Source: a virus. Taken from it: a DNA stretch of 64,000 nt. Of the stretch, positions 21,344 to 34,630 are shown in pieces. A model generated the notes under the pieces. The model searched no databases. It saw only the letters and a program-made list of their open reading frames with translations, and was not told the DNA's origin. The stretch spans positions 1 through 64,000 of IMG/VR virus record IMGVR_UViG_3300045391_002864; one strand, written 5' to 3'. The position numbers and the translations under genes are program-made. Each line of letters starts with the position of its first letter. The first letter of the stretch is position 1.

Positions 21344-23131
21344 TTAGTTGTTTGCCGAGAGCGGGTTGAAGCTCGGGTTGTCGGCCACGTAGCCCTGGAT
21401 CATGGCGTGGAAGCGCGGGATACGGACGCGCGGGGCGCCGATCATCGCAACTGCCCAAGGCATATACAGGTTCTGCGCGAAGAGTTCGATCTTCGTCAGC
21501 GGCAGCAGGTAGCGGAAATCGAGCGCGTTGTCCTCGTCGGACAAGTCGAGCAAGAAGATGTTCTCGCTGCCGGGGATGTACGTGTTGAAGTCGGTGAACG
21601 TCACCGCGTACGAACCATTCGCCAGCACGGTCCCGATGTACCGGAACGAGTACGGGGTATTGGCGGCGCCGGTCTTGGCGTACCCATTGCCCGAGCGATA
21701 CACGCGGTAGGCGTAGGCCGTGTTGTCGGTGGGCGGGGTGATGGTCAGCTGCACGGCGCCATCGACGGCGATCGTGGTCACGGGCGCGGTGTAGGACAGA
21801 ACGGACTCGTTCATGTACTCATCGCAAGACGCCACGGCGTAGACGTACGACGGGGTGGTGGTGTAGGCGGTGGTCCAGGCGCTGCCGGAGGCGCCTGCCA
21901 GGACGGCCGCAGTCACCGTGTAAGGCGGCGTCGGGTCCGTCATGGTGGCATTGTTGGTGCCATTGCCGTTAAGGATCGCCTGCGCAGGCATGTCACGGGC
22001 GCTGATGAACAGATCGAGGACGAACTGGATCAGGCCGAACCGGGTCTGCATGCCCTGGAGATCGCCGTTCACGGTGATGCCGCGCCGATCAGCGCTGCCG
22101 CGACCGATGTCGATCGAGACGATGTTGTTCAGGTTGGTGGTCACAAGGCTCTGGAGCGAGGCGTTCGCGTCCGGAGTCATGAAGGCGTGGGTGATGCGAC
22201 CGAAGTTGCCGTAGCTGGTGATCTGCGCGGCGGCTTCGTAGATCAGGTTGAACAGACCCTGCGCGGCCGACCAGCCTTGCGTGGCGCCGTAGGACGTGTA
22301 CCATTCCTGATAGTTGAAGACGTTCTGCGTCGGGATCATCGAGGCCAGACCGGCGAACTGCATCGGGTACAGCGCCTGATTACCCCAGTACATCGCCCAG
22401 TCGACGGTCGACAGAATGGACAGTGCACTGTTCGTCGATTCCTGAACGGCGATGTCGACGAAGGAGTTCTGCGCCGCGAGGGCGGTCGTCATCGCGCGGC
22501 CATTGACCATGAGCGCGAGATTGACTTCCTTCAGCATGTAGTCGCCCGTGGTCGTCGACAGCGTGCCGCTCTGCACGTTGCCGAAGCCCTGGAAGGCCGT
22601 GCCCGGCAGGCCGGCGCCGAGGTTGTCGATATACGCCCAGTAGTCGGTGATCTGATTCGCACGGCTCTTGTTCAGCGCCTGATACAGCGTGAAGCTGTTC
22701 GGCCGCACGGTGGCGCGGGCCAGCTGGGTATCCAGCGACACGTAGCCGAGAGACTGACCGCCCGTTACGGTCGTCAGGTTCGTCATGCCGCCGACGTCGA
22801 GGACGGACTTGGCGATGGCGCCGGACTTGACCATGTCCTCGTGGTTCCACTGGCGCCCGTCAGGGCCGGTGCGCTGGTAGAAGCCCGGATTGGTGCGGAA
22901 CGCCTTGGACATCGCGTTCGCTTGGTGCATGTGCATCTCGCCCTTCGCGAGCATTTCCTGCGCCCCGGCGCTGTGCGCACCGGGATTCAGAAGCTCGTGG
23001 AAGACGGACGCCATCTGGTCGCCGACCGGGGCGCGTGCCAGGACGCTCAGAGCCTGCGCCTGGGCCTTCGCCACCGCCATGCGCTGGACGTTCGCCGGAA
23101 CGTAGGGATTATCGTGTGCGAATTGAGACAT
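21344..23131 (-). CDS. major capsid protein
   Basis: Follows protease and scaffold; SLDTQL, VDWAMYWGN..QFAGL; strong codon bias; N-terminal KS/KA-rich leader. Confidence 0.8.
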   Translation of the reverse strand: MSQFAHDNPYVPANVQRMAVAKAQAQALSVLARAPVGDQMASVFHELLNPGAHSAGAQEMLAKGEMHMHQANAMSKAFRTNPGFYQRTGPDGRQWNHEDMVKSGAIAKSVLDVGGMTNLTTVTGGQSLGYVSLDTQLARATVRPNSFTLYQALNKSRANQITDYWAYIDNLGAGLPGTAFQGFGNVQSGTLSTTTGDYMLKEVNLALMVNGRAMTTALAAQNSFVDIAVQESTNSALSILSTVDWAMYWGNQALYPMQFAGLASMIPTQNVFNYQEWYTSYGATQGWSAAQGLFNLIYEAAAQITSYGNFGRITHAFMTPDANASLQSLVTTNLNNIVSIDIGRGSADRRGITVNGDLQGMQTRFGLIQFVLDLFISARDMPAQAILNGNGTNNATMTDPTPPYTVTAAVLAGASGSAWTTAYTTTPSYVYAVASCDEYMNESVLSYTAPVTTIAVDGAVQLTITPPTDNTAYAYRVYRSGNGYAKTGAANTPYSFRYIGTVLANGSYAVTFTDFNTYIPGSENIFLLDLSDEDNALDFRYLLPLTKIELFAQNLYMPWAVAMIGAPRVRIPRFHAMIQGYVADNPSFNPLSANN

Positions 23132-23155: not shown

Positions 23156-24358
23156 TTACGCGAACGACTTCACGATTTCGCGGACGCGATCGGTGGTGAC
23201 GCGCAGTTTTGCTTCCACGACGCCGTGCGGAACGATGCCGTCGCGGGCGCCCTTGGCGATGGTGATGAGGTCGAGAGCGGCAGCGCACTCGTTCTCGGTG
23301 ATCTCGCCGCTATCGCGCTTGGCGAAAATGACGGCTTCCGGGTTCGCGGACTTCGCCACGGCCTCGGCCACGTTCGGGACCGACTTGGCGATGGACGCCA
23401 GCGGCTTGCTGCCCTGGAGGATGTCGATGATGTCGCTCATCTTGCCCTTCAGGATGTCATGACCGGCGACGGCGGCCTCGATCTTCGACAGCACATCCGG
23501 CGGAACGATCGACTTCGCGGTCTCCCCGGTGTTCTCCGGCTTGTCCTCTTCCGGGGTATCGTCGGCTTTTGCGACCTTGGACTTGGCGGCTTCGCCCTCG
23601 TCCTTGTCCTCGCAATCTTCCTTCATATCCTCGATGGACTTGGCGACGGCCTGAATGCCGGCATGGGCCGGCGCGAGGGCCAGCGCGGCGCCGATCAGGG
23701 TGCTCGCCTTCACCAGCGCTTCGGCGGCCTGGAAGCGGGCCATGTCAGCGGACTTGCCCATCTTGGCGGCCTGCATGGACTTGGCGGTTTCGAGCTTGGA
23801 CTTGGCGGTGGCGACCAGGGGCTTCACTTCGGCCATGATCGGAGCGACAGACTTGGCGCAGCCGGGGAAGGTGTCCGGCTCCTCCATGGTGTCCTCGGTC
23901 TTGCCGACCTCTTTGTCCTTCTCCTCGTCATCCGCTTTCGCGAGACTGATGACGGCGGCCTTGATGACGTCCATCTCCGCGCGATGCAGGTTGAGCGACT
24001 TCGCGACGTTGCGGATGGTGGTGATCAGTTCGCCGAGTTTTTCGGCGTCCAACTGACTGCCCTTCTGCCGGGCGAAATCGGAATGCGCAGCGGCGCGCTC
24101 GGGCTCAACGCCCCCGGAGGCTTCCTGCGAGGGGCCGACGAGGATTTCGCCCCGGTTTTGGGTGCCGCTGGTGTCGGCCGACCACAAATCCTTGATCGCA
24201 TCGGCCAACAGGCCATCGGATTCGGGAAGCTCGGACTTCACGGTGGCATCGCCCAGGATATCGGCAAAGTCCTGCGGCTTGCCGGACTTGGCGAGGAAAG
24301 TGACGAGACGGTTGAACACGCTATTGCGGTCGGCCGCCGGGGAGGTTTTGACAGTCAT
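23156..24358 (-). CDS. capsid scaffold-like protein
   Basis: Charged helical protein between protease and capsid with more than 15 xAKS/xxKA motifs. Confidence 0.65.
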   Translation of the reverse strand: MTVKTSPAADRNSVFNRLVTFLAKSGKPQDFADILGDATVKSELPESDGLLADAIKDLWSADTSGTQNRGEILVGPSQEASGGVEPERAAAHSDFARQKGSQLDAEKLGELITTIRNVAKSLNLHRAEMDVIKAAVISLAKADDEEKDKEVGKTEDTMEEPDTFPGCAKSVAPIMAEVKPLVATAKSKLETAKSMQAAKMGKSADMARFQAAEALVKASTLIGAALALAPAHAGIQAVAKSIEDMKEDCEDKDEGEAAKSKVAKADDTPEEDKPENTGETAKSIVPPDVLSKIEAAVAGHDILKGKMSDIIDILQGSKPLASIAKSVPNVAEAVAKSANPEAVIFAKRDSGEITENECAAALDLITIAKGARDGIVPHGVVEAKLRVTTDRVREIVKSFA

Positions 24359-24443
24359 ACTAGCGCCTGTATTCCTTCGAAAAGCGGCGCTGACGGCCGC
24401 AGGAGCAATTGGCGACAAACTATGGGGCAGGACCGGGTTATCC

Positions 24444-25241
24444 CTAGACCATCCTCAAAGATTTCCGCATGAGCGCGTTGGCAATGATGCCGGCCTGACC
24501 TTCATCAACGCCGAGACACTTTACAAAGTGATTTCGGTACGCTGAAGTTGAAGGAAATTGATGGCACTTACACGTTTCACATACAGAATGTGATTTCGCA
24601 GTTTCCATGTCCGTGATCTGGACTGGATACGACTTTACAAGCTCCGCCATATACGATTTCGCCGTCACGACTTTTGCAGCGTGAATAATGCTGTCGTTCA
24701 CCGGCCGGCGAGTGAACGCCAGGGACCGCCATTCGAAGCCTCTGATGAGGTAGCGAGTAGCGCCGTACGGGCCGGGCTGTCCGTCGAATACATCGATACC
24801 GCCTTCGGTCGGAAAGCCGTACACGGACGCGCGCCAGACGACCGGCGGATTGCACGTCAGCGATTCCCAAAATTCATCGTACTTGTGATCCTGCGGCCGG
24901 CTAACACCGTCTGCGGAGCGGCTGATCTCGCCGACAACGCCCGTCCGGCCGCCGCCCAAGTCTTTGACTTCCGTGGGGCGGCCGATGATGTAGGACGCGG
25001 GATTGCGGATGCCCATGCGCTCGCCGAACTCAGACAAGTGATCGATGTCGAGTGCGCCTGTTGCGATGAACTCAGGCGCGGCCTTCATAAGCGCGGACTG
25101 AAGGATGACGTCGCCCTGCGAGTCGACTTGCTCGTTACTGGCCTCGACTTCCACGAGGCGGCGATCTCCGTCAGTGCGGGCCTTAATGATGACGGGTACG
25201 TTGACGACGAGGGCGTCGTGTTTCACTTGCGGCGGCTCCAT
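24444..25241 (-). CDS. prohead protease
   Basis: ASNEQVDSQGDVI, DIDH, ASVYG, SLAFTRRPVN (HK97-type protease pattern). Confidence 0.75.
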   Translation of the reverse strand: MEPPQVKHDALVVNVPVIIKARTDGDRRLVEVEASNEQVDSQGDVILQSALMKAAPEFIATGALDIDHLSEFGERMGIRNPASYIIGRPTEVKDLGGGRTGVVGEISRSADGVSRPQDHKYDEFWESLTCNPPVVWRASVYGFPTEGGIDVFDGQPGPYGATRYLIRGFEWRSLAFTRRPVNDSIIHAAKVVTAKSYMAELVKSYPVQITDMETAKSHSVCETCKCHQFPSTSAYRNHFVKCLGVDEGQAGIIANALMRKSLRMV

Positions 25242-25894
25242 CTTGCGACCGCTTTCTCGACGAAGCTCTTATCCAGATCGATGTCCTCGAACCGTTCCGG
25301 CCCTAAGAGCAGCCGATCGGCATAAGGACTGATCGTCCGTAAATCGCGGTCTTGCTTGGAATAAGATAACGTGATGTGAGGCGCGTACTCAGACCAATCC
25401 CAGGACGCGCCCAGGCGCCGGAATTGCTGGTGACGCTGTTGAAGCTCCGGGGAGCGGATTTTCAAAACGGTGGCAGACTTGTCCTGCCCGAAAGCATCGA
25501 GGGAGCGAGTGTGGTCAGGCGCAATGTGGACTTCCTGCGCGCCCTTGCCCATGGCCTGCCAGTTCACCGGCTCTCGGGAGTACGCGATGGTGACGTGCAT
25601 GTCCTCGGGTCCGATCATCGGACTGAGTCCCTGCCGGCGGAAATGCCGGATTACCTCGTCAGCGTTTAGAACGGGCCGGCTGACATAGAGAGGCGCAACG
25701 TCGGCTTTTGCGAGGGCCAGCATGTCGAGCGCGATGTCGCGCGTTTTCGCTGATATGATATGTGCCACGCCTGCGCCTTTAGGAAACGACTTCAGAATCT
25801 CTCGTTTGCCGATGCGGAGACGGACGAGGGCGGGCGCGCCCTCGTGGACATGCAACCTGTATCCTGTGGAAGTCTCAAAAAGTGACGCCGGCAT
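25223..25894 (-). CDS. 2H phosphodiesterase, Acb1 (anti-CBASS)-like
   Basis: Two HxT motifs: MHVTIAYS and YAPHITLSY, with LQQRH...GASWDW between them. Confidence 0.8.
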   Translation of the reverse strand: MPASLFETSTGYRLHVHEGAPALVRLRIGKREILKSFPKGAGVAHIISAKTRDIALDMLALAKADVAPLYVSRPVLNADEVIRHFRRQGLSPMIGPEDMHVTIAYSREPVNWQAMGKGAQEVHIAPDHTRSLDAFGQDKSATVLKIRSPELQQRHQQFRRLGASWDWSEYAPHITLSYSKQDRDLRTISPYADRLLLGPERFEDIDLDKSFVEKAVARWSRRK

Positions 25895-25939
25895 AGGAGA
25901 CCCTATACCGGCGTGACGATCTATTCCTGAGAGTATTGC

Positions 25940-26401
25940 TTAATTTGGGGAGACGGATTCGCATCTAAGGATGGAGCGCGATTTGTTTCTAGCGAATCGG
26001 TCAAACTTTACAAACCAGTCATCCATTGTCAGGCGTTCGGCGTGAAGCGCCCACCAGCCGTCGCCCTTCTTACTGTTGCGGACCTCGCCGTCGACCCACT
26101 CCATTAGCTCCTCGCCGTCTTGCTCATCACCGAAAGTCGCGTGGTACGACATTTCGATAATGAGTTCGCGCCGGTTAGCTGCGGCAAGAAGCTCGTACTT
26201 CGCCTTCTGGTAATTCAGGCAAAGCCAGATCGTGTTCTCGGGATTGGCGGTGCAGTTTTTGCACTTGCACCGCCGGGCCTCGAAAAGCATCCTCTTCCGC
26301 TCGAAAATATCCCTCTGGCGATTCCAGCTTCCGCAATAGTGGCAGTCGCAGGAATCGTCATCGGTGATATCGTAGTGGTCGATTAGCCTACGCGCCGTCA
26401 T
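25940..26401 (-). CDS. Cys-rich hypothetical protein
   Basis: CDCHYC and CKCKNC motifs. Confidence 0.5.
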   Translation of the reverse strand: MTARRLIDHYDITDDDSCDCHYCGSWNRQRDIFERKRMLFEARRCKCKNCTANPENTIWLCLNYQKAKYELLAAANRRELIIEMSYHATFGDEQDGEELMEWVDGEVRNSKKGDGWWALHAERLTMDDWFVKFDRFARNKSRSILRCESVSPN

Positions 26402-29400
26402 TTTTCAGGCTTTCGGTGTAGCCGTGCCAGGAGTTGAGCCATGCTGACACGTCGATGTAGCCGAACGGGCTACCGTGGCGATCGATGCACGCCTGACAGT
26501 GCGACGGGCCTTTCTCGTAGCCCTTGTTGCAGCTGACGCCGTCGACGGACATCGTCAGGCGTGGACAAAGCATGTGCTCGATCGGGCCGATGTAGTGGAA
26601 ATCCACGCCGGTCTTCATCAGCGCCCGCACCGTCTCCACGATAGCCGGCGGCGGCGCAGCGCCGACCAGCTGCGGTAGGACGACGCGCTTGATGCCGAGG
26701 GCGGATAGGACGCGGTTCAGATGCGCCGGGTCGCGGATGTCGATCGGCCGGACGTTGCTGAACACCGGGGCCACGGAGTTCAGCGAGAAGCCGGACAGAA
26801 CGGCGCGGTAAGTGATCGAGCGGTTCCGGGCTTCGTACTGAAGAACCGGAGAAACCTCGGAAAGAGCAGATGCATCGTTGATGATGAGAACCGCATCTCC
26901 TTCCGGGTTGCGCTCGACACCTTTGAGCGTGCTGAAGTCGAACGTGAGCCCGTTTATGGCGAAGTTCGGATTCACGTAGGGGTCGACGAAGGCCTTCCAG
27001 CGCTCGCGGAACGCCGCGAAATCGGCCTGATCCAGCGGGATATTGCCGCCGACGAAGACCATGTTCGACACGCAGTTGACGACGTTTCGGTAGCCCTCGC
27101 CGTGGAGCTTCAGGCAGAGATCGAAGTCCGCGAACTCGCTCTTGAATAGGTCGTCGAACTCGAACAGCGTGAAGAGGTCGCGCCGGATCGCGAGCAACAT
27201 GCGGCTGACGGCGCTTGCCTCGTGTGAGAGCGCGGAATAGCCGAAATAGCCCGCATTGTTGACCGGCAGGTTGACGTGCGGGGCGGATGGTATGCCATTC
27301 TGCACCATCATGCCGACGTTCGCGACCACGCCGGAGCCGTGTGCGATACGGGCGCTGACGGCGCCGTAGGCGGGCCGCTCCGCAAAGCCGACGATGCCAT
27401 TCAGCCACTTGTATTCGGCCGGGCGAATGAGGTCGGACGTGAAGACGAGGATGTCTTCCTCGCATAGCGATGCCGCATGGTTCAGGACTTCAACAGCCGG
27501 ACCTCCCTGCACCAGCGCAATTTCGACACCAGATTCGGCGCACTCGGCGACGCCGCTCGATGCCACGACGATGCGGGAGATCGGATAGTCGGTTGTCTGC
27601 CGGAACGCACGCACACACGCGGCGAGCACTTCAGGGTCGCCGGACTGCGCGTGAATGATAAGTGCGACCGTCGCGTCACCGCGCGGCACCGGGTTATAGA
27701 ACGCGTAGCCGAGTTCGGGAATGTTGGTGTTAACCTTGGCCTCGTCGCCGGGCCAGAAAGCCTCCACGACCCGCTTCTGCACCTCGGAGGCCGCGATACC
27801 CTCCTCCTTCGTCATGCGCTTCACGCTGGCGAGAATATGCGGGATACGGACGGATGGGCCGTTTCCATACGCGCGCACATTCCGGGCGACTACGGGACCG
27901 TAGTAGTCATAGGATAGGCGCAGCGTGTCATCGCGCTCGGGCTTGAAGAACGGCACCACGGCCCCGTTCGTATCGATCTCCTCGTGGTCGCCAAACACGT
28001 AAGCATGCCCGGCATCGAGGGCGTCTTGAATCAGCGCGAGCGCGTACGGGGTAAGCTCGGCATCGCGCGAGACTTCGACAACATACTCGGCGTCTTCCGG
28101 CGCCGGGTCATCGCCGCGCACGATGACACACTTGCTGCCATCGGACACGGTCTTGGGGAACGGCTTCAGCGCCGCCCAGGTGGCATAGTCGCTGGCGAGG
28201 CCGCCAGTGCCCTGCCGGACGCCCGGCCATGTCGCGGCGACACAGCGCAGTTCCGCCAGTTCGCGGATTTCCGGCGCCATCGGCGTCGCCTTCGCCTGGA
28301 TCAGCTTGGCCGTGCCGACTGCAGTCAGGCGCTTCACCGCGTCATCGTCCAGCTGCGGGCTCGGCGTCGTCGTGCCGGCGAACACGTCGAAAAGCTGGAT
28401 ATTGCGCAGGCCACGCTCTGTTGCGCGTGCCGTCCACTCCATCAGCGCGATTTCCGGGTCCGCGTACTTGTCGAACTGCGGCATGCCGAGGGTTTTGATG
28501 CCTTGGGCGCGGATGAGCAGGCACGGGCCACTGAACACGGGGATAATCGCCTTCTGCCCCTTGGCGACGTCTGCCAGAACGGCATCGATGCCCTCCGCCT
28601 CTTCGGCGCCGACCGGCTGGATGCGGTCCTGGCGCGGGAATGCGTTCACACCATCGGACGCCACGGGCGCGATCGACGCGGTGAACTTGTCTTCCAGAAT
28701 GGCGGTACGCAGGCGGGCGAGGCCGCGCGGCGTAATGGTCGTGCCGGGCCGCAGGTATAGGATATCGGTGTTATCCTCCAGCGCGGCGCGGCAAGCGGTT
28801 TCGAAGTCGACCGACTTGCGAGTGGGGATGGAGCCGACGACGGCCAGTTTGCGGGCGCCGGGAGTCTCACCCTTGGCCTGCCATAGCTGAAGGTGCGACG
28901 GGAACCACGCAGCATTGCGGGCCGCAGCATTCGCCTCATAAGTCCGGCTGCGGACCCACGTCAGCATCTGCTTGCTGATGTTGATCTTCTGGCTGATCGA
29001 GATATCCGCATACTTCTGAATGGCCGCTGTCCATTCCTCCGGATGGATCGGGAAGGCATAGACCGGCGCGCCACAAGCGCGGTACGCGGCGGCCGGGCTC
29101 GCGATGACAGCCGCGCCGACCGCTGCCGCCTCCAAAACCTTCAGTTCAGACTTGGCATCGTTGAAGCGGTTCAACTCGACCGGCGCCAGCATGACGTCGA
29201 GGTTCAACGAGGCCAGCTTGCTCATATACTGATCGAGCGGCACGAAGTCATGGAACTCGGTGTTCGCCGGCATCGGAAACTTAGGCGCCATGCCGAAGAA
29301 GACCCATTGGACGCCTTCGACGTTCTCGATGGCATGGCGCAGAAGTTCCAGATCGGCCGCATGGCTGATTCCGCCGCACCAGCCGACGCGTGTCGTTTTC

Positions 29401-29891
29401 GCGGCGGGCTTCTGTTCGCGCTCTTTGATCGAGTACCCGGACATCAGGTTCGGGACGATGCGGATATCCTTCGCGCCCATCTCGTCCCGTGCCCAGTCGG
29501 CCAGCGTCGGGGTTGTGACGGTCACGATGTCGGCGATCGACATCGCCGCTCTGACGCGCTCGGCCATGTCGGGAGGCATGCCGGCCGAGTGGATGTTACC
29601 CTGCGGGACTTCGGTCAGCAGATCATCGATTTCGTAGACGAACGTCGTCGTCGGCGATGCAGCCTTGCATTCCTGAAGATGCGCGATCTGGCGCCAGTCC
29701 TCGACGCGCTGCACGACGACGATGTCGGGCTGCACGGAACGGAACCATTCGGCAGTGTGGATGTTCTTCTCGAACGTGACTTCCGCAGAGCCCTGGCTTG
29801 CCAGGAAATGACCGGGAAGAATCATGCGGTGCCAGGAGCAGGCATTCTCGGCCGACACGTAGACCACGACAGAAGCAGGACGAAGCTGCAT
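26388..29891 (-). CDS. multidomain glycosyltransferase (GT-B/GT4-like N-terminus, GT2-like domains)
   Basis: YEIDDLL, VGWCGG.SH..DL, FNDAKSELKVLE; later GT2-like FADFDLCLKL..GYRNV. Confidence 0.8.
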   Translation of the reverse strand: MQLRPASVVVYVSAENACSWHRMILPGHFLASQGSAEVTFEKNIHTAEWFRSVQPDIVVVQRVEDWRQIAHLQECKAASPTTTFVYEIDDLLTEVPQGNIHSAGMPPDMAERVRAAMSIADIVTVTTPTLADWARDEMGAKDIRIVPNLMSGYSIKEREQKPAAKTTRVGWCGGISHAADLELLRHAIENVEGVQWVFFGMAPKFPMPANTEFHDFVPLDQYMSKLASLNLDVMLAPVELNRFNDAKSELKVLEAAAVGAAVIASPAAAYRACGAPVYAFPIHPEEWTAAIQKYADISISQKINISKQMLTWVRSRTYEANAAARNAAWFPSHLQLWQAKGETPGARKLAVVGSIPTRKSVDFETACRAALEDNTDILYLRPGTTITPRGLARLRTAILEDKFTASIAPVASDGVNAFPRQDRIQPVGAEEAEGIDAVLADVAKGQKAIIPVFSGPCLLIRAQGIKTLGMPQFDKYADPEIALMEWTARATERGLRNIQLFDVFAGTTTPSPQLDDDAVKRLTAVGTAKLIQAKATPMAPEIRELAELRCVAATWPGVRQGTGGLASDYATWAALKPFPKTVSDGSKCVIVRGDDPAPEDAEYVVEVSRDAELTPYALALIQDALDAGHAYVFGDHEEIDTNGAVVPFFKPERDDTLRLSYDYYGPVVARNVRAYGNGPSVRIPHILASVKRMTKEEGIAASEVQKRVVEAFWPGDEAKVNTNIPELGYAFYNPVPRGDATVALIIHAQSGDPEVLAACVRAFRQTTDYPISRIVVASSGVAECAESGVEIALVQGGPAVEVLNHAASLCEEDILVFTSDLIRPAEYKWLNGIVGFAERPAYGAVSARIAHGSGVVANVGMMVQNGIPSAPHVNLPVNNAGYFGYSALSHEASAVSRMLLAIRRDLFTLFEFDDLFKSEFADFDLCLKLHGEGYRNVVNCVSNMVFVGGNIPLDQADFAAFRERWKAFVDPYVNPNFAINGLTFDFSTLKGVERNPEGDAVLIINDASALSEVSPVLQYEARNRSITYRAVLSGFSLNSVAPVFSNVRPIDIRDPAHLNRVLSALGIKRVVLPQLVGAAPPPAIVETVRALMKTGVDFHYIGPIEHMLCPRLTMSVDGVSCNKGYEKGPSHCQACIDRHGSPFGYIDVSAWLNSWHGYTESLKNDGA

Positions 29892-29974: not shown

Positions 29975-30262
29975 TTACACGCGGCCGAGGCGCCAAATGC
30001 AAAACGCCACGAAGACGAAAATGCCGGCCAGTGCGATGTCGTACGGGATCGGGTTGCTTGAGGGCGAGTTCGCCTGGGGCGCGACAGAGCCCGGCACGAG
30101 CACGACGGAGTGCGCGTTTACGGCCGGATGCGCGATCACGGGCGGGGTATAATCAGGGTGATCCTCATCGATCGTAGGGACATCGATGTGCGGAACTTCA
30201 ACGAAGACGTCGACCATCTTGCTAGCTCTTTCCTTTTTCAGATGCAGAATCACGCCGGACAC
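29975..30262 (-). CDS. small membrane-anchored protein
   Basis: C-terminal hydrophobic helix IALAGIFVFVAFCIW. Confidence 0.4.
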   Translation of the reverse strand: MSGVILHLKKERASKMVDVFVEVPHIDVPTIDEDHPDYTPPVIAHPAVNAHSVVLVPGSVAPQANSPSSNPIPYDIALAGIFVFVAFCIWRLGRV

Positions 30263-31895
30263 CGCTCACGGCACCGTGCGCCTCTGACTTCGCGGGATCG
30301 CGCTTCTCGCCCGTTTTGGCTCCACGGTCCTTCTCGTCATCGGCATTGCCGCTATCGTCTACGCCGAGCGCGGCCTTCAGTACAATGCTTGCAAGGGTGG
30401 TGAAGGCGCCGGTCTGATTGGAGTCGGTCGGGCATAGGCCCATCAGCTTGCCGAGCAGCTTGAACTCTTTCGGGTACAGGCTTTCGGTGGGCGGAAGATC
30501 GGCCATGGCGCGGCGCTCGTCCTGCGTCTGCGCCTGGGAGCGGGCTTCGTATTCTCGCGCATCTTCTTTGGGGTTTTTGCCGCAGAAGGTGAAGCGAAAC
30601 TCCGGCCACCGGCTCCACAAGATGGGGTTGATGTGGTTTTCAAGCGAGATCAGCAGAGGAGACAGGCCGGGATCGTCGTCGCCGATCATAGCTGTGCTCT
30701 GGTCCGGCGGCGGAGCGGAATCAGTCGTGCCGCCGGACGGATGATAGCCGAGGCGCTGTGGCGGGAAGTTCCAAGTCGCGCAGAACACGCCGGCGACGAG
30801 GTTCATATGATCTTTGTAGAAAATATCGGTCCCTTTGAGGTCTTTCAGCGACATGATCTCCATGTTGCCGTCCTTCGGGACATTGATCGCAGGGAAGGTC
30901 CAGGCTTTGGAAATCCCCTTCTTCATGTTGTTCCAGGCGCGCGTCAGAAGATCGACTTGGCGCTGCGTCCAGTAATCCCCCTTCAACAGCAGAATGCCTT
31001 GCGGCAGCGTGGATTTATCGAACGTGTCGCTGTTGAAGTTCAGGGCGTTCTCGAACGCGCCAATCATCTTGATTGACTGCCCGGCCTCGGGGTAGCCGTA
31101 GCCGGCGACTTCCGGGTCGGTGCGCGGGTTGCGGACGCTCCAGTTCAGTTCGCCGCGCGTGAAGGACTCGCGAGGGTTGTTCGTGTCGTCGATCAGCACC
31201 GCGAATTTTGATGGGTCGCCGTTGAAGCCCTCGCGCGTGCAGAGGCGGATCAGGTAGGAGGGCAGGGCGGCAAATGCGACGACGCGGCCGGCGTTGTCGC
31301 GCTGTGTCCATGTCGCCATGCCATCGAAGCGCATGCTGTCGCGGACCAGCATGCGCAGATAAGTGTCGAACGACGAGAGATGCATTTCATCGCGCTCGAC
31401 CGTCTGCGTCATCCCGGTCTCGATGTTGCAGTTCAGAAGAAACGCTTCGGCTTTCCGCATCTCGCGCCGCTGCGACTCCGTCATGTGCGCGCTGCCGTCG
31501 ATCATCTCCAGGCGCCAGCCGGGTTTCCAGGGCTGAGCCGAGATACGGCTATAGCGCACCACGTCATTGACGCGCATCTGCACGATCATCTTCGGCGCGA
31601 AATTCTCGTCGCAAACTTTCTTCAGGGAGCGTGGATCAATGCCGGGCCACTCGACGATGTTCTTGCCGGAAATCGTCGGCATGTACGAAATGGTGCCGTA
31701 GGACTGCGCACTCGGAACTGCCTCGACGGCTTTGGAAAGCGCATCGGCGTGTCGGAAGAATGAATCCTCGTCGAAAATCGTGCTGCCCATCAGGGACGAC
31801 TTGAACGTCGGGAGTTTTGCCGAGGTATGGACGACGCCAGACATCGCGTCGACATCCCATCCGTTCGGATCGTATGGTTCCCGGTATTCGCTCAT
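30222..31895 (-). CDS. portal protein
   Basis: Directly after TerL (TGATG overlap); RNPR...YGY, FDK..LPQGIL portal-like motifs. Confidence 0.8.
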   Translation of the reverse strand: MSEYREPYDPNGWDVDAMSGVVHTSAKLPTFKSSLMGSTIFDEDSFFRHADALSKAVEAVPSAQSYGTISYMPTISGKNIVEWPGIDPRSLKKVCDENFAPKMIVQMRVNDVVRYSRISAQPWKPGWRLEMIDGSAHMTESQRREMRKAEAFLLNCNIETGMTQTVERDEMHLSSFDTYLRMLVRDSMRFDGMATWTQRDNAGRVVAFAALPSYLIRLCTREGFNGDPSKFAVLIDDTNNPRESFTRGELNWSVRNPRTDPEVAGYGYPEAGQSIKMIGAFENALNFNSDTFDKSTLPQGILLLKGDYWTQRQVDLLTRAWNNMKKGISKAWTFPAINVPKDGNMEIMSLKDLKGTDIFYKDHMNLVAGVFCATWNFPPQRLGYHPSGGTTDSAPPPDQSTAMIGDDDPGLSPLLISLENHINPILWSRWPEFRFTFCGKNPKEDAREYEARSQAQTQDERRAMADLPPTESLYPKEFKLLGKLMGLCPTDSNQTGAFTTLASIVLKAALGVDDSGNADDEKDRGAKTGEKRDPAKSEAHGAVSGVRRDSASEKGKS

Positions 31896-33784
31896 CAAAA
31901 ACCACGTCCTAGCATCTGGAGTGCGCCCCGCTCGCGATAATCCCAACAGGAGTCGAACGGGATGGCCGCGCGCTTGTGAAGGCCACACCAGTTCCTTACA
32001 CCGGGTTGCCCAGGTTTCCCGTGACCATGCCACATCTCACATGTGCCGCAGGCGTTATAGAGCGGATGTTCGGATAGATCGGAGCCGAGCTTCGCGATCT
32101 CCTCCAGCACATTCACCGGCCTGCCCTCTTCAATCTCGTCCGGCGATGCAGCTGCCAGAGCATCGCTGCTGGGTAGTCGAGCCATGCCGACACCGGCCTC
32201 GATCGCGTGTGCGATCAGGTAGACGGTGGCGTCGACTTGGTCTTTCCTGCCGGCACGTGTGCCGGAGAACTCCAAAAACTCTGTCGTGTACGCCTTGCCC
32301 CAGGCAGCGCCGTCCAGAAGCACGACGCGGTGCTGACGGAACCAGCCTTGCACAGAGGCGTGGGAGCCGCCCACGGCGTCGACAGCGCGGTCCATTTTGC
32401 CGTCCTTGGCTGTCACACCACGGATCGGGATGCCGCTGCTGATGAAGGACTGTAGCAGCTGAATGCCGGACGATCTGTTCTCGACAAGGACCAGCTGCGG
32501 TTGCCATAGCCCGTTCTGCTTTCGGAAGGCATTCGATAGCTCGCCGAAGTCGAGCTTTTCGCGCAGTACGTCGACGACGTACACGCGGTTATGGCGCTCG
32601 CATTGGCCGACGACCTTTTCATCCTCGCCGCGCCACCATTGATCAGACGGGACGAGAATGCCTGTCACACAGACCGAATAGGCGCTGTCGGACGACTTAC
32701 CGGCCGCCGTATCCCATACTTGGATCACTGTGCCCTGCGTGCGCTCGATAAAGCCGCGCACGGCCGGCGAGTGGATGCCGAGGGCTGCATCCGCTGGGCT
32801 GACGTCGCGGAACGTGATAAAGTCGGCGTCCTCGAAAACCGGATTCTCTCTGACGTTCGGGTTGCACTGATACACGGCTTCAGCGAGGGCGGGTGTCGCA
32901 CGCTTGATGCTCTCGAACTCGCTCCGCTTTGACTTAGACCCAGGCCAGTAGAAGCCCTTCCCAGTGTGGTCGACGCCGTAATACGCCTTGTATTTGACGT
33001 ACGGTTTGTCCGGGTCTTGGCCGGGAAGTGGTGTCAGATTCTCGCTGAACCAACACGGCATCGGCGAGCCATCTTCCAGCTTCGGCACTTTGACGTCATG
33101 CCATAGCTCATGCGAGCCCTTGCGCTCCGCCGGGCACTCCAGCACGACCCAGTCGCCAGATTCGATCAGCGCACCGTACACGTCCGCGCGGTTGAAGCGC
33201 CGACCGGACAGGACGTACCGGGCGCCTCGCGGATCGGCGCGGCCGAGGATGGTGTTATAGAACGTGTCGACGACCTTCTGGCACTGCTCCGCTGACGCCG
33301 AGTTGTCCTTGTTGTGCAAGTCATCCATGATGATCTCGCGACCATGGAGACCCGTGAGCGTTCGGCTATCGATGCCGACGCCGATAAAACTGGCGTCCGG
33401 GTCGCCCGCCGCATGCCCGGTGACGTAGAGGCCCTTTTCGGTCGACCAGCCGCGCTTCTTGTCTGGCGTGACTTCTGGATAGAGCTTACGGAATGCTTTG
33501 TCCGTCTCGATGATTTCGCCGATGGCCTCTTGGAAGCCCTTAACGAGTCCTTCGCCCGCGCTAATGGCGATGATCGTGGTATCGGGCTGCTCGCCCAGGC
33601 GCCACGCCGGATATACCTGAGAGGTTATGGTGGACTTACCCGTGCCCGGCGGGCCAATCAGGATCAGCTTGTTGATGCGGAAATCTTCAAGCGCGAGGCA
33701 GACATGGATGTGATGCGGCGCGATCGAGAAGCCGCGATCCTTGTAAATCGCATTGTAGAAGCCGGACAAGCTGTTTTTGAGCAT
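31895..33784 (-). CDS. terL: terminase large subunit
   Basis: PPGTGKST Walker A, IIMDD Walker B, YQCNP, QVWDTA, KDQVDA nuclease motifs. Confidence 0.9.
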   Translation of the reverse strand: MLKNSLSGFYNAIYKDRGFSIAPHHIHVCLALEDFRINKLILIGPPGTGKSTITSQVYPAWRLGEQPDTTIIAISAGEGLVKGFQEAIGEIIETDKAFRKLYPEVTPDKKRGWSTEKGLYVTGHAAGDPDASFIGVGIDSRTLTGLHGREIIMDDLHNKDNSASAEQCQKVVDTFYNTILGRADPRGARYVLSGRRFNRADVYGALIESGDWVVLECPAERKGSHELWHDVKVPKLEDGSPMPCWFSENLTPLPGQDPDKPYVKYKAYYGVDHTGKGFYWPGSKSKRSEFESIKRATPALAEAVYQCNPNVRENPVFEDADFITFRDVSPADAALGIHSPAVRGFIERTQGTVIQVWDTAAGKSSDSAYSVCVTGILVPSDQWWRGEDEKVVGQCERHNRVYVVDVLREKLDFGELSNAFRKQNGLWQPQLVLVENRSSGIQLLQSFISSGIPIRGVTAKDGKMDRAVDAVGGSHASVQGWFRQHRVVLLDGAAWGKAYTTEFLEFSGTRAGRKDQVDATVYLIAHAIEAGVGMARLPSSDALAAASPDEIEEGRPVNVLEEIAKLGSDLSEHPLYNACGTCEMWHGHGKPGQPGVRNWCGLHKRAAIPFDSCWDYRERGALQMLGRGF

Positions 33785-33817: not shown

Positions 33818-34630
33818 CTAGACCACGGATGAGAATCGCGTCGTCGCCGTCGCACCGAATTTCAGGAGCTTCTTCATCGCGGCTTGGTGGAGTTGGGCGA
33901 CACCCTGCTTCGTGCCGCCGAGCGCTGCCGCGATGACCGAAAATGGCTCCTCTCTGAAATCGTGCCGGATGACGATGTGGCGCTGGCGCTCGGTTAGTGT
34001 GCCGAGGGCTTCCTGCACTAGCCGGCGTTGATCTTCCGCATAGACGGCGTCCTCTGCGGACTCATCCTCTGATGGAATCTCGTCGCAGACGGTCGTGTCG
34101 CCATCTGCAGCTACCATTTCGCTCGCGGATGTCTCATTTTGCGCGTTAAGCGCACTGCGCAGATCGCTTTCTGCGACCCCCAGCACTGCAGCGATCTCGG
34201 CGTCTGTCGCGGCATCGCCGAGTTTCTCCCGTGCCTTGCTGATGTTTTTGAGCGTACGCTGATAGGCGCTGGCCAGCTTCACAGAAAGAGCGGATGAGTT
34301 CTGTATCGCGTATTCATGGATCGATGTTAACGCCCATCCGATGGCATACGTGCCAAACCCCGAGGCATGCTCTTTGGTGTGTGTATCGAGAGCGCGCAGT
34401 ATCCCGGCGATCCCGGCCTGCACGAAGTCCTGCACCTCATCATGGCGCCCGTAGCGCTTGTGCTGGAGTCGTGCAATCCTCACGACGGCGGGCGTATAAG
34501 CCTTCACGATTTCGCCTTGCGCTCGCTTGTCACCGCTCGTTTGCCACTTCTCGACGAGGGCTGATATCTCGTATGCTTTGTAGTTTCGGGTTCGCTTCGA
34601 AATCGATCGGATGTAGGTGTCATCAGACAT
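33818..34630 (-). CDS. phage sigma-70 family RNA polymerase sigma factor
   Basis: DFVQAGIAGILRA..FGTYA (region 2); LTERQRHIV...VAQLHQAAMKKL (region 4). Confidence 0.85.
   Translation of the reverse strand: MSDDTYIRSISKRTRNYKAYEISALVEKWQTSGDKRAQGEIVKAYTPAVVRIARLQHKRYGRHDEVQDFVQAGIAGILRALDTHTKEHASGFGTYAIGWALTSIHEYAIQNSSALSVKLASAYQRTLKNISKAREKLGDAATDAEIAAVLGVAESDLRSALNAQNETSASEMVAADGDTTVCDEIPSEDESAEDAVYAEDQRRLVQEALGTLTERQRHIVIRHDFREEPFSVIAAALGGTKQGVAQLHQAAMKKLLKFGATATTRFSSVV

Follow-up and report, generated by a model that had tools for sequence, protein, structure and literature searches.

The 64,000-nt stretch of DNA analysed here (positions 1 to 64,000 of IMG/VR record IMGVR_UViG_3300045391_002864, called the window below) belongs to an uncultured phage whose genome is 94,058 nt in full. 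On its minus strand, at 25223..25894, lies a gene for a protein of 223 residues that is composed of an Ig-like N-terminal domain, a linker, a 2H phosphodiesterase core of the Acb1 type and a basic C-terminal tail. By its motifs, its profile match and its modelled fold, this open reading frame (ORF) securely encodes a 2H phosphodiesterase of the Acb1 family with intact catalytic motifs. It lies in the head gene module and overlaps the gene of a predicted prohead (capsid maturation) protease, and its relatives are fused to proteins of the phage head. Is the enzyme then loaded into the head, trimmed there and injected into the next host? We regard packaging and clipping at K63|A64 in the linker (the bar marks a predicted cut) as standing at an even balance.

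The catalytic core spans residues 66-209 (25268..25699, minus strand). Pfam family Acb1 (PF23474) matches residues 68-209 over profile positions 2-141 of 144, with an E value of 4.9e-37 and 127.3 bits against a cut-off of 27. The two HxT motifs were read directly from the DNA of the minus strand, H100-V-T102 at 25589-25597 and H173-I-T175 at 25370-25378. In an alignment of 43 sequences of the Acb1 family, H173 is invariant and H100 and T102 are nearly so. The AlphaFold2 model of the protein has a mean predicted local distance difference test score (pLDDT) of 83. When the model was searched with Foldseek, 7T26 and 7T27 ranked first, and its alignment by VIA-align to 7T27, the Acb1 of FBB1, gives a Z-score of 16.6 and a root-mean-square deviation (rmsd) of 2.1 Å over 134 residues with 32% identity. 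Sequence matches in the PDB include 7T26 (E 8e-10) and the C-terminus of the Pam3 portal (E 1e-31). A first-pass annotation of this DNA had described a 2H domain with two HxT motifs as Acb1-like, and the description is confirmed by these results.

Which substrate does the enzyme cleave? Cyclic nucleotides would be expected from its family membership, by analogy with characterised members. Hobbs et al. assayed 10 diverse Acb1 homologues, and every one of them cleaved cyclic GMP-AMP (cGAMP) and cAAA; in T4 Acb1 the residues H44 and H113 are required for activity (PMC9117128). One alternative is that it is a 2H phosphoesterase with some other substrate, packaged or not: RNA ends with a 2',3'-cyclic phosphate in the manner of LigT, the RNA of a Usb1-like RNase, or signals of the 2'-5' oligoadenylate type. 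The protein also has weaker Pfam matches to 2_5_RNA_ligase2 and LigT_PEase, and phrog_755, which is annotated as RNA ligase, is among its PHROG matches. For portal- and MuF-fused 2H domains, a role as RNase was considered by Iyer et al. 2017 (PMC5512222), and literature searches found no assay for any portal- or protease-fused member of the clade. However, the two generic families reach 37 and 31 bits, far below the 127 bits of the Acb1 profile. The fold comparison gives the same picture, since the next unrelated 2H enzymes (CPDase and LigT-like) have Z-scores of only about 10-11, well below that of the FBB1 Acb1. Also, there is no RNA ligase gene adjacent to the acb1-like gene. A substrate of that kind is therefore improbable in our judgement.

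The phylogenetic surroundings of the enzyme give it a close connection with the phage head. In cultured phages, the domain has its closest relatives at the C-terminal ends of portal proteins (phiPSA1, Pam3, RHEph04-type and others). In IMG/VR, a scan with the single sequence came back empty and an alignment-based query recovered the Acb1 clade, with 79 loci. About 66 of these are Phage_portal_3 proteins with a C-terminal Acb1; in the other loci the partner is an XkdF-type protease, MuF or ART-PolyVal, with Acb1 as the N-terminal part. A search with the window protease itself gave 325 homologues, and about 15 of the best 119 carry an N-terminal Acb1 (50-55% identical, 372-449 aa). These protease-fused forms begin directly at M..LYVxRPVLNA, without any N-terminal extension. 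Their linker between Acb1 and protease holds xxK[AS] in 13 of the 15 fused forms read, besides a conserved IVK|A.

In a tree of 86 Acb1 domains, the window enzyme is joined first by P0002 (support 91) and then by the protease-fused P0017 (support 84). All three are inside a 27-row group of protease-fused and other N-terminal forms (support 95), and 59 portal fusions make up a separate group (support 95). The best identity of the window Acb1 to a protease-fused form is 51% (P0016). We infer from these sequences that this phage lineage commonly encodes Acb1 and protease as one polyprotein, of which the window gene is the split form. At the protein level the head module recurs in at least 17 IMG/VR contigs of up to 116 kb, and 17 such phages were collected for comparison; their proteases are 36-59% and their major capsid proteins (MCP) 45-58% identical to those of the window, and only one of them, L085, holds the Acb1 gene. 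Among cultured phages, a search by nucleotide sequence gave no near relative. Note that the window protease and the XkdF-type protease of another Acb1 locus (P0004) show no direct similarity, so Acb1 must have joined at least two different protease families.

The same protease family also bears other enzymes. Among its members P0131, P0132 and P0139, InPase is found at the N- or the C-terminus, and Acb1, protease and Nudix are found on one chain. Judged from these sequences, the protease family would carry small enzymes that degrade nucleotides (Acb1, InPase, Nudix) as cargo. Since the carrier also bears InPase and Nudix, a cargo system fits better than a pairing specific to the cyclic oligonucleotide-based antiphage signalling system (CBASS). 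A further homologue, P0082, has another N-terminal passenger, of 130 aa. A protein of Edwardsiella phage vB_EpM_ZHS (ZHS_4; L002:2116-2715) may also be mentioned here. It is labelled prohead protease, yet it is a 199-aa protein of the Acb1 family (Pfam E 2.8e-22) with an N-terminal extension of 55 aa, and its gene lies between terminase and portal. The label was probably carried over from fused relatives.

What kind of protease lies next to the enzyme? The protein encoded at 24444..25241 (minus strand) has 265 residues. Its Pfam and PHROG protease matches are weak, and a PDB sequence search with it gave no match. Its AlphaFold2 model, for which 70 homologues were used, has a pLDDT of 88. The top Foldseek matches of this model are all herpesvirus assemblins, together with T4 gp21 (5JBL; TMt 0.58, rmsd 3.5 Å), at weak E values of 1e-3 to 1e-2. 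Residues H68, S70, S139 and S173 are invariant in the 70 homologues. From the modelled fold, the position before scaffold and MCP and the conserved His and Ser residues, it is taken to be a prohead protease of the assemblin/T4 gp21 fold.

The cleavage code of this protease is legible in the proteins around it. The Lys-rich scaffold (23156..24418, minus strand) holds 17 K[SA], 10 of which are AKS; the whole genome has 189 K[SA] in 27,496 aa. Each of the 15 relatives with a scorable scaffold ORF has 15-26 xxK[SA] in its scaffold, and many of the scaffold sites have an acidic residue at P2 (VEKA, IDKS). In the MCP (21344-23131, minus strand) the predicted maturation site K108|S109 is part of AIAKS (residues 105-109; 22805..22819, minus strand). 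The PHROG MCP profile begins at residue 104, so that AIAKS sits where the conserved capsid fold starts. MCP homologues number 16 in total, and in all 10 whose printed N-terminal 140 residues reach this place K-[AS] is invariant right before the block xLDVG(S/T)LTN..TGGQSLGYVSLDT; the 100-170 residues ahead of the block are variable. The protease carries the motif as well. Its leader (residues 1-22) is disordered in the model, with pLDDT 40-53, and includes IIK|AR at 18-22, where K20-A21 is invariant in a 14-row protease alignment. TAKS, LVKS and again TAKS all follow its core. K195 is invariant in the 70 unfused homologues, and K20 and A194 are nearly so. The proteases of the related phages have IVK-A near residue 20 in most cases, and (T/S)AK(S/A) after the catalytic domain in most. 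These sequence patterns make phi-x-K|(A/S) a well supported specificity for the protease family. The motif found in the scaffold sites, before the MCP N-terminus and on both flanks of the protease core is the one that the first-pass annotation had matched to scaffold and capsid.

There is also a module at the C-terminal end of the protease (residues about 212-265; 24444-24600), which follows TAK|S and has the conserved residues C221, C224, H238 and C242. This Cys/His end has the look of a small zinc-binding domain and could be the part that targets the capsid. In P0132 and P0139, InPase or Nudix stands in place of it.

How does this code read on the Acb1-like protein? A weight matrix was trained on the scaffold sites of the window, and the 187 K[SA] sites of the genome were ranked with it. 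The MCP site ranks 1, LALAKADV ranks 4, ILKS 11, LDKS 21, VEKA 38 and QDKS 126. The matrix gives some false positives, because three unrelated proteins also score above 5. The best candidate cut in the enzyme is K63|A64 in LAKA (residues 61-64; 25703..25714, minus strand). It lies in the interdomain linker, which the model places between the strand 56-61 and the strand 66-75 of the core. The sequence LA(L/M)AKAD is invariant in 4 of the 5 split forms, and the L085 form has VEVKS nearby. A cut at LAK|A would expose ADVAPLYV as the new N-terminus. The next candidate, ILKS (residues 33-36; 25787..25798, minus strand), is kept as I[LMIV]KS or VVKS in 5 of 5 split forms and is located within the strand 31-37. 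There is a fifth tetrapeptide inside the catalytic domain, QDKS at residues 137-140, which the first-pass annotation does not mention.

The two remaining motifs, LDKS (207-210) and VEKA (212-215), are in the C-terminal tail (residues 207-223; 25226..25276, minus strand), which has a basic end and is disordered in the model (pLDDT below 50). This tail is homologous to the DWK..I.EE tail of the portal-fused forms and is conserved across the clade; the split forms all keep W219 and R221. Its 14 residues after the position aligned with W140 of FBB1 are in a part of the model with low confidence (pLDDT below 50). The FBB1 Acb1 closes over cGAMP with a lid made up of its residues 145-152 (PMC9117128). 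Judged from the alignment, LDKS and VEKA probably belong to the substrate lid rather than to cut sites, and cleavage there would probably harm the enzyme by removing the lid. Since the tail aligns with the Acb1 lid, the conservation of VEK can be explained without cleavage. The first-pass annotation had the domain bracketed by protease sites, with ILKS and LAKA before it and LDKS and VEKA after it. All four tetrapeptides are where it had put them, but the bracketing stood only in part: LAKA, conserved and highly ranked in its linker, is a good candidate site, while ILKS is in a beta strand and the C-terminal pair is in the probable lid.

The segment ahead of the linker (residues 1-61; 25712..25894, minus strand) does not look like a short disordered propeptide. 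In the AlphaFold2 model it is a folded beta domain of six strands (3-7, 11-16, 22-28, 31-37, 43-48 and 56-61) with pLDDT 62-80, resembling Ig and FN3 domains. Fold searches found generic FN3/Ig matches with Z-scores of 5-6.4, and a search of a protein atlas gave small unnamed beta proteins only. A phmmer search of 1.8 billion proteins returned the domain itself, the fragment P0130 and one bacterial Ig-repeat protein (E 1e-6). The model thus allows us to class it as Ig-like and no further.

The N-domain was found only in split forms. Five of these are known (the window protein, P0002, P0003, the fragment P0130 and L085:5337-5996), and each has a homologous extension, about 60-70 aa long, with I/V-x-K-S mid-way. 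The L085 gene ends 2 nt before its protease gene. A scan of metagenomes gave two loci, neither of which bears the N-domain. Probably the N-domain arose together with the split, in a single evolutionary event. We also considered it as a targeting domain shared among several cargo proteins. This was rejected, as a hidden Markov model of the N-domain matches no other protein of the 94-kb genome or of the fetched loci, except the L085 orthologue. In one split form, P0003, about 16 residues that make up the entire first HxT segment are deleted, and N-domain, LALAKAD linker and tail are all present. This copy may be inactive, or the gap may have arisen in the assembly. P0013 appears to be the protease next to P0002, as both come from contigs of equal length, 8400 nt.

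Put together, these features give a scenario for packaging. Because relatives fuse the enzyme to the head-internal portal, MuF, ART-PolyVal or protease, its encapsidation in this phage is a reasonable inference. The protein would enter the prohead with the Ig-like N-domain, the basic C-tail or both replacing the former covalent link to the protease as attachment. The protease would then cut the linker at LAK|ADVAPLYV with the same phi-x-K|(A/S) specificity that it would use on the scaffold, the capsid protein and itself. A core of roughly 17 kDa would stay inside the head. It would exit with the DNA and, in the next host, hydrolyse 3'-5' cyclic di- and trinucleotide signals, those of CBASS and possibly also the cA3 of type III CRISPR. 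The same hydrolysis may also take place in the producing cell, before assembly. A bolder form of this scenario can be drawn, in which the N-domain is a dedicated prohead-targeting module that was born with the split and is removed at LAK|A, the injected core acts on cyclic oligonucleotides from the first second of infection, the joining of Acb1 to the protease also reflects the protease as a CBASS trigger, and the lineage is a modular cargo-loading system (Acb1, InPase, Nudix) whose release code is simple to read. We think this fuller form rather unlikely.

The main alternative to packaging is that the enzyme is a late antidote in the cytoplasm, coupled to the protease as the trigger of CBASS and acting only in the producing cell, with none injected. 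The coupling would ensure that wherever the trigger is made the antidote is made too. The K[SA] motifs would then be unused, or would serve only to free Acb1 from a polyprotein in the cytoplasm. Such a role is suggested by reports that prohead proteases cleave and activate CD-NTases, for which T4 gp21 alone suffices (PMC12991175), and that CBASS escape mutations fall in prohead protease and scaffold genes (bioRxiv 2023.05.21.541620). The 19-nt overlap of the acb1-like and protease genes fits an antidote coupled to its trigger, and so do the Acb1-protease fusions in about 15 homologues. However, it leaves several things unexplained. Acb1 is also fused to the portal, where the C-terminus points inward, to MuF and to ART-PolyVal, none of which is a known CBASS trigger and all of which are inside the head. 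Nor does an antidote account for the presence of InPase and Nudix as cargo of this protease, or for the gain of an N-domain with a top-ranked cleavage motif in the split forms. An antidote confined to the producing cell is a serious rival to packaging, though we would not call it probable. Delivery and a trigger-coupled antidote are compatible and do not exclude each other.

Several points weigh against packaging and clipping. Literature searches found no experimental test, no virion proteomics and no report of cleavage or activity for this phage or its relatives. In T4, Acb1 activity appears only from about 15 min after infection, that is, the enzyme is made late and is not injected (PMC9117128), which also fits the antidote. 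The first-pass annotation had offered late timing as its own alternative, and this alternative is strengthened now that prohead proteases are reported to activate CBASS directly (PMC12991175). The window gene is a separate ORF, and the enzyme has no covalent tie to any head protein while its relatives do. Within the phage the N-domain is an orphan, so it is unmarked as a targeting module. The correlation between split and N-domain counts once, because the five split forms probably go back to one event. The accessibility of ILKS, buried in a beta strand of the model, is doubtful. A hairpin across the acb1 start codon, described below, could hold expression down. Finally, the virion portal of Pam3 (8HDS) holds the fused sequence (40% identical) and yet is missing among the structural matches of the model; from this absence the Acb1 domain would be invisible in the 8HDS map. 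Flexibility and removal fit this invisibility alike. The Pam3 paper is silent on the Acb1 domain of the portal, and for PDB entry 9Q2Y (BCSR5 phosphodiesterase) literature searches found no paper.

The internal proteins IPI-III and Alt of T4 have a capsid-targeting sequence that is removed by gp21, and they are injected with the DNA; they are also cited in PMC5512222. The window protein is like them in being a small late protein, for counter-defence or host takeover, whose N-terminal segment ends in the prohead protease's own motif. The likeness has its limits: the T4 targeting sequence is a short peptide common to several cargos, whereas the window segment is a folded 61-aa orphan on one protein, and cleavage and packaging are established for the T4 proteins and predicted for the window protein.

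With the Acb1 of T4 (gp57B) and of FBB1 (7T26/7T27; PMC9117128) the window protein shares the Pfam family, the 2H fold, both HxT motifs and a C-terminal tail at the lid position, and by analogy the same chemistry is expected. Those enzymes are free-standing proteins of about 150 aa encoded outside the head module. The window protein, at about 30% identity, differs from them by the extra Ig-like N-domain, the location between portal and protease and the overlap with the protease gene. A second comparison is with packaged and polyvalent effectors. Two papers (PMC5512222, PMC9503650) predicted that a 2H domain joined to portal or MuF is packaged in the head and injected against nucleotide signalling; the enzyme superfamily, the location in the head module and the proposed logic are shared with the window. 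However, the polyvalent-type 2H effectors are covalent fusions, whereas the window gene is free-standing and comes from the protease-fused rather than the portal branch. In the accessible parts of the two papers, the protease is named as fusion partner for Nudix, not for 2H. A third comparison is with the work on CBASS triggers (Hobbs and Kranzusch 2026 preprint, PMC12991175). In its terms the downstream gene of the window pair falls in the trigger class, and the upstream gene would destroy the CBASS signal. That work concerns T4 gp21 and CD-NTases of E. coli, without Acb1-protease fusions or gene overlap.

As for the genes around the enzyme, the minus-strand order is a sigma factor (33818-34630), TerL (31895-33784), the portal (30222-32033), a glycosyltransferase protein of 1167 aa (26388-29891), the Cys-rich orf153 (25940-26401), the acb1-like gene, the protease, the scaffold and the MCP. 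The first-pass annotation had put the enzyme in a late head operon, overlapping the protease gene; the portal and protease flanks and the overlap bear this out. The overlap covers 19 nt from the ATG of the protease to the acb1 stop (25223..25241, minus strand), with the protease in the +1 frame, and suggests translational coupling. An Acb1-protease fusion by read-through or frameshift was considered for the window and rejected, given a TAA 10 codons before the protease ATG and no recognisable slippery site.

The annotated start of the acb1-like ORF is an ATG. For P0001 the gene caller instead picked a TTG 13 codons downstream; the ATG is favoured, because four homologues align from residue 1. 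A hairpin scan found a GC-rich stem of 13 bp with a U-run (25885..25914, minus strand), which covers this ATG and comes directly after orf153. The RNA fold of 25865-25945 on the minus strand has -32.1 kcal/mol and a z of -5.7, and 0 of 200 shuffles were equally stable. There is no comparable hairpin at the L085 acb1 homologue. The hairpin may be a terminator between the portal, glycosyltransferase and orf153 genes and the protease, scaffold and MCP genes, or a translational brake on acb1.

The portal of the window has no Pfam match and is not of the Phage_portal_3 type, which is the type that bears Acb1 in other phages. It has AKS at residues 581-583, close to its C-terminus, and may be trimmed there. 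The gene order portal, large glycosyltransferase, orf153, protease, scaffold and MCP is common to the related phage set. The part from portal to protease is kept in most of the 17 relatives, where the glycosyltransferase protein has about 1200 aa at 27-32% identity, so the glycosyltransferase and orf153 are members of the head module rather than recent insertions. In L029, whose protease is of a different type, glycosyltransferase/methyltransferase genes likewise occur within the head module.

What does the finding add? The idea of packaged 2H enzymes is itself already in print, from 2017 and 2022 (PMC5512222, PMC9503650). In literature searches, no paper was found that describes fusions with portal, MuF or protease, or an occurrence in virions, for Acb1 under that name. 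New here are the split form with an Ig-like N-domain, a comparatively well-founded protease code by which one predicted cut site stands out as good, the status of the protease lineage as a putative carrier of several cargos, and the rereading of the C-terminal "sites" as a probable lid. For annotation, the family accounts for Acb1-like genes that are mislabelled prohead protease or portal. The lineage may also serve as a test bed, as it has a legible protease code, one cargo in both fused and split versions, and other cargos (InPase, Nudix) attached at the same points. Here the antidote, Acb1, lies beside or on the class of protein that the 2026 preprint names as CBASS trigger, which makes delivery and a trigger-coupled antidote directly testable against each other. 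If the enzyme is indeed loaded and injected, the phage would have a counter-defence against CBASS and type III CRISPR before any phage gene is expressed, as has been predicted from genomes since 2017.

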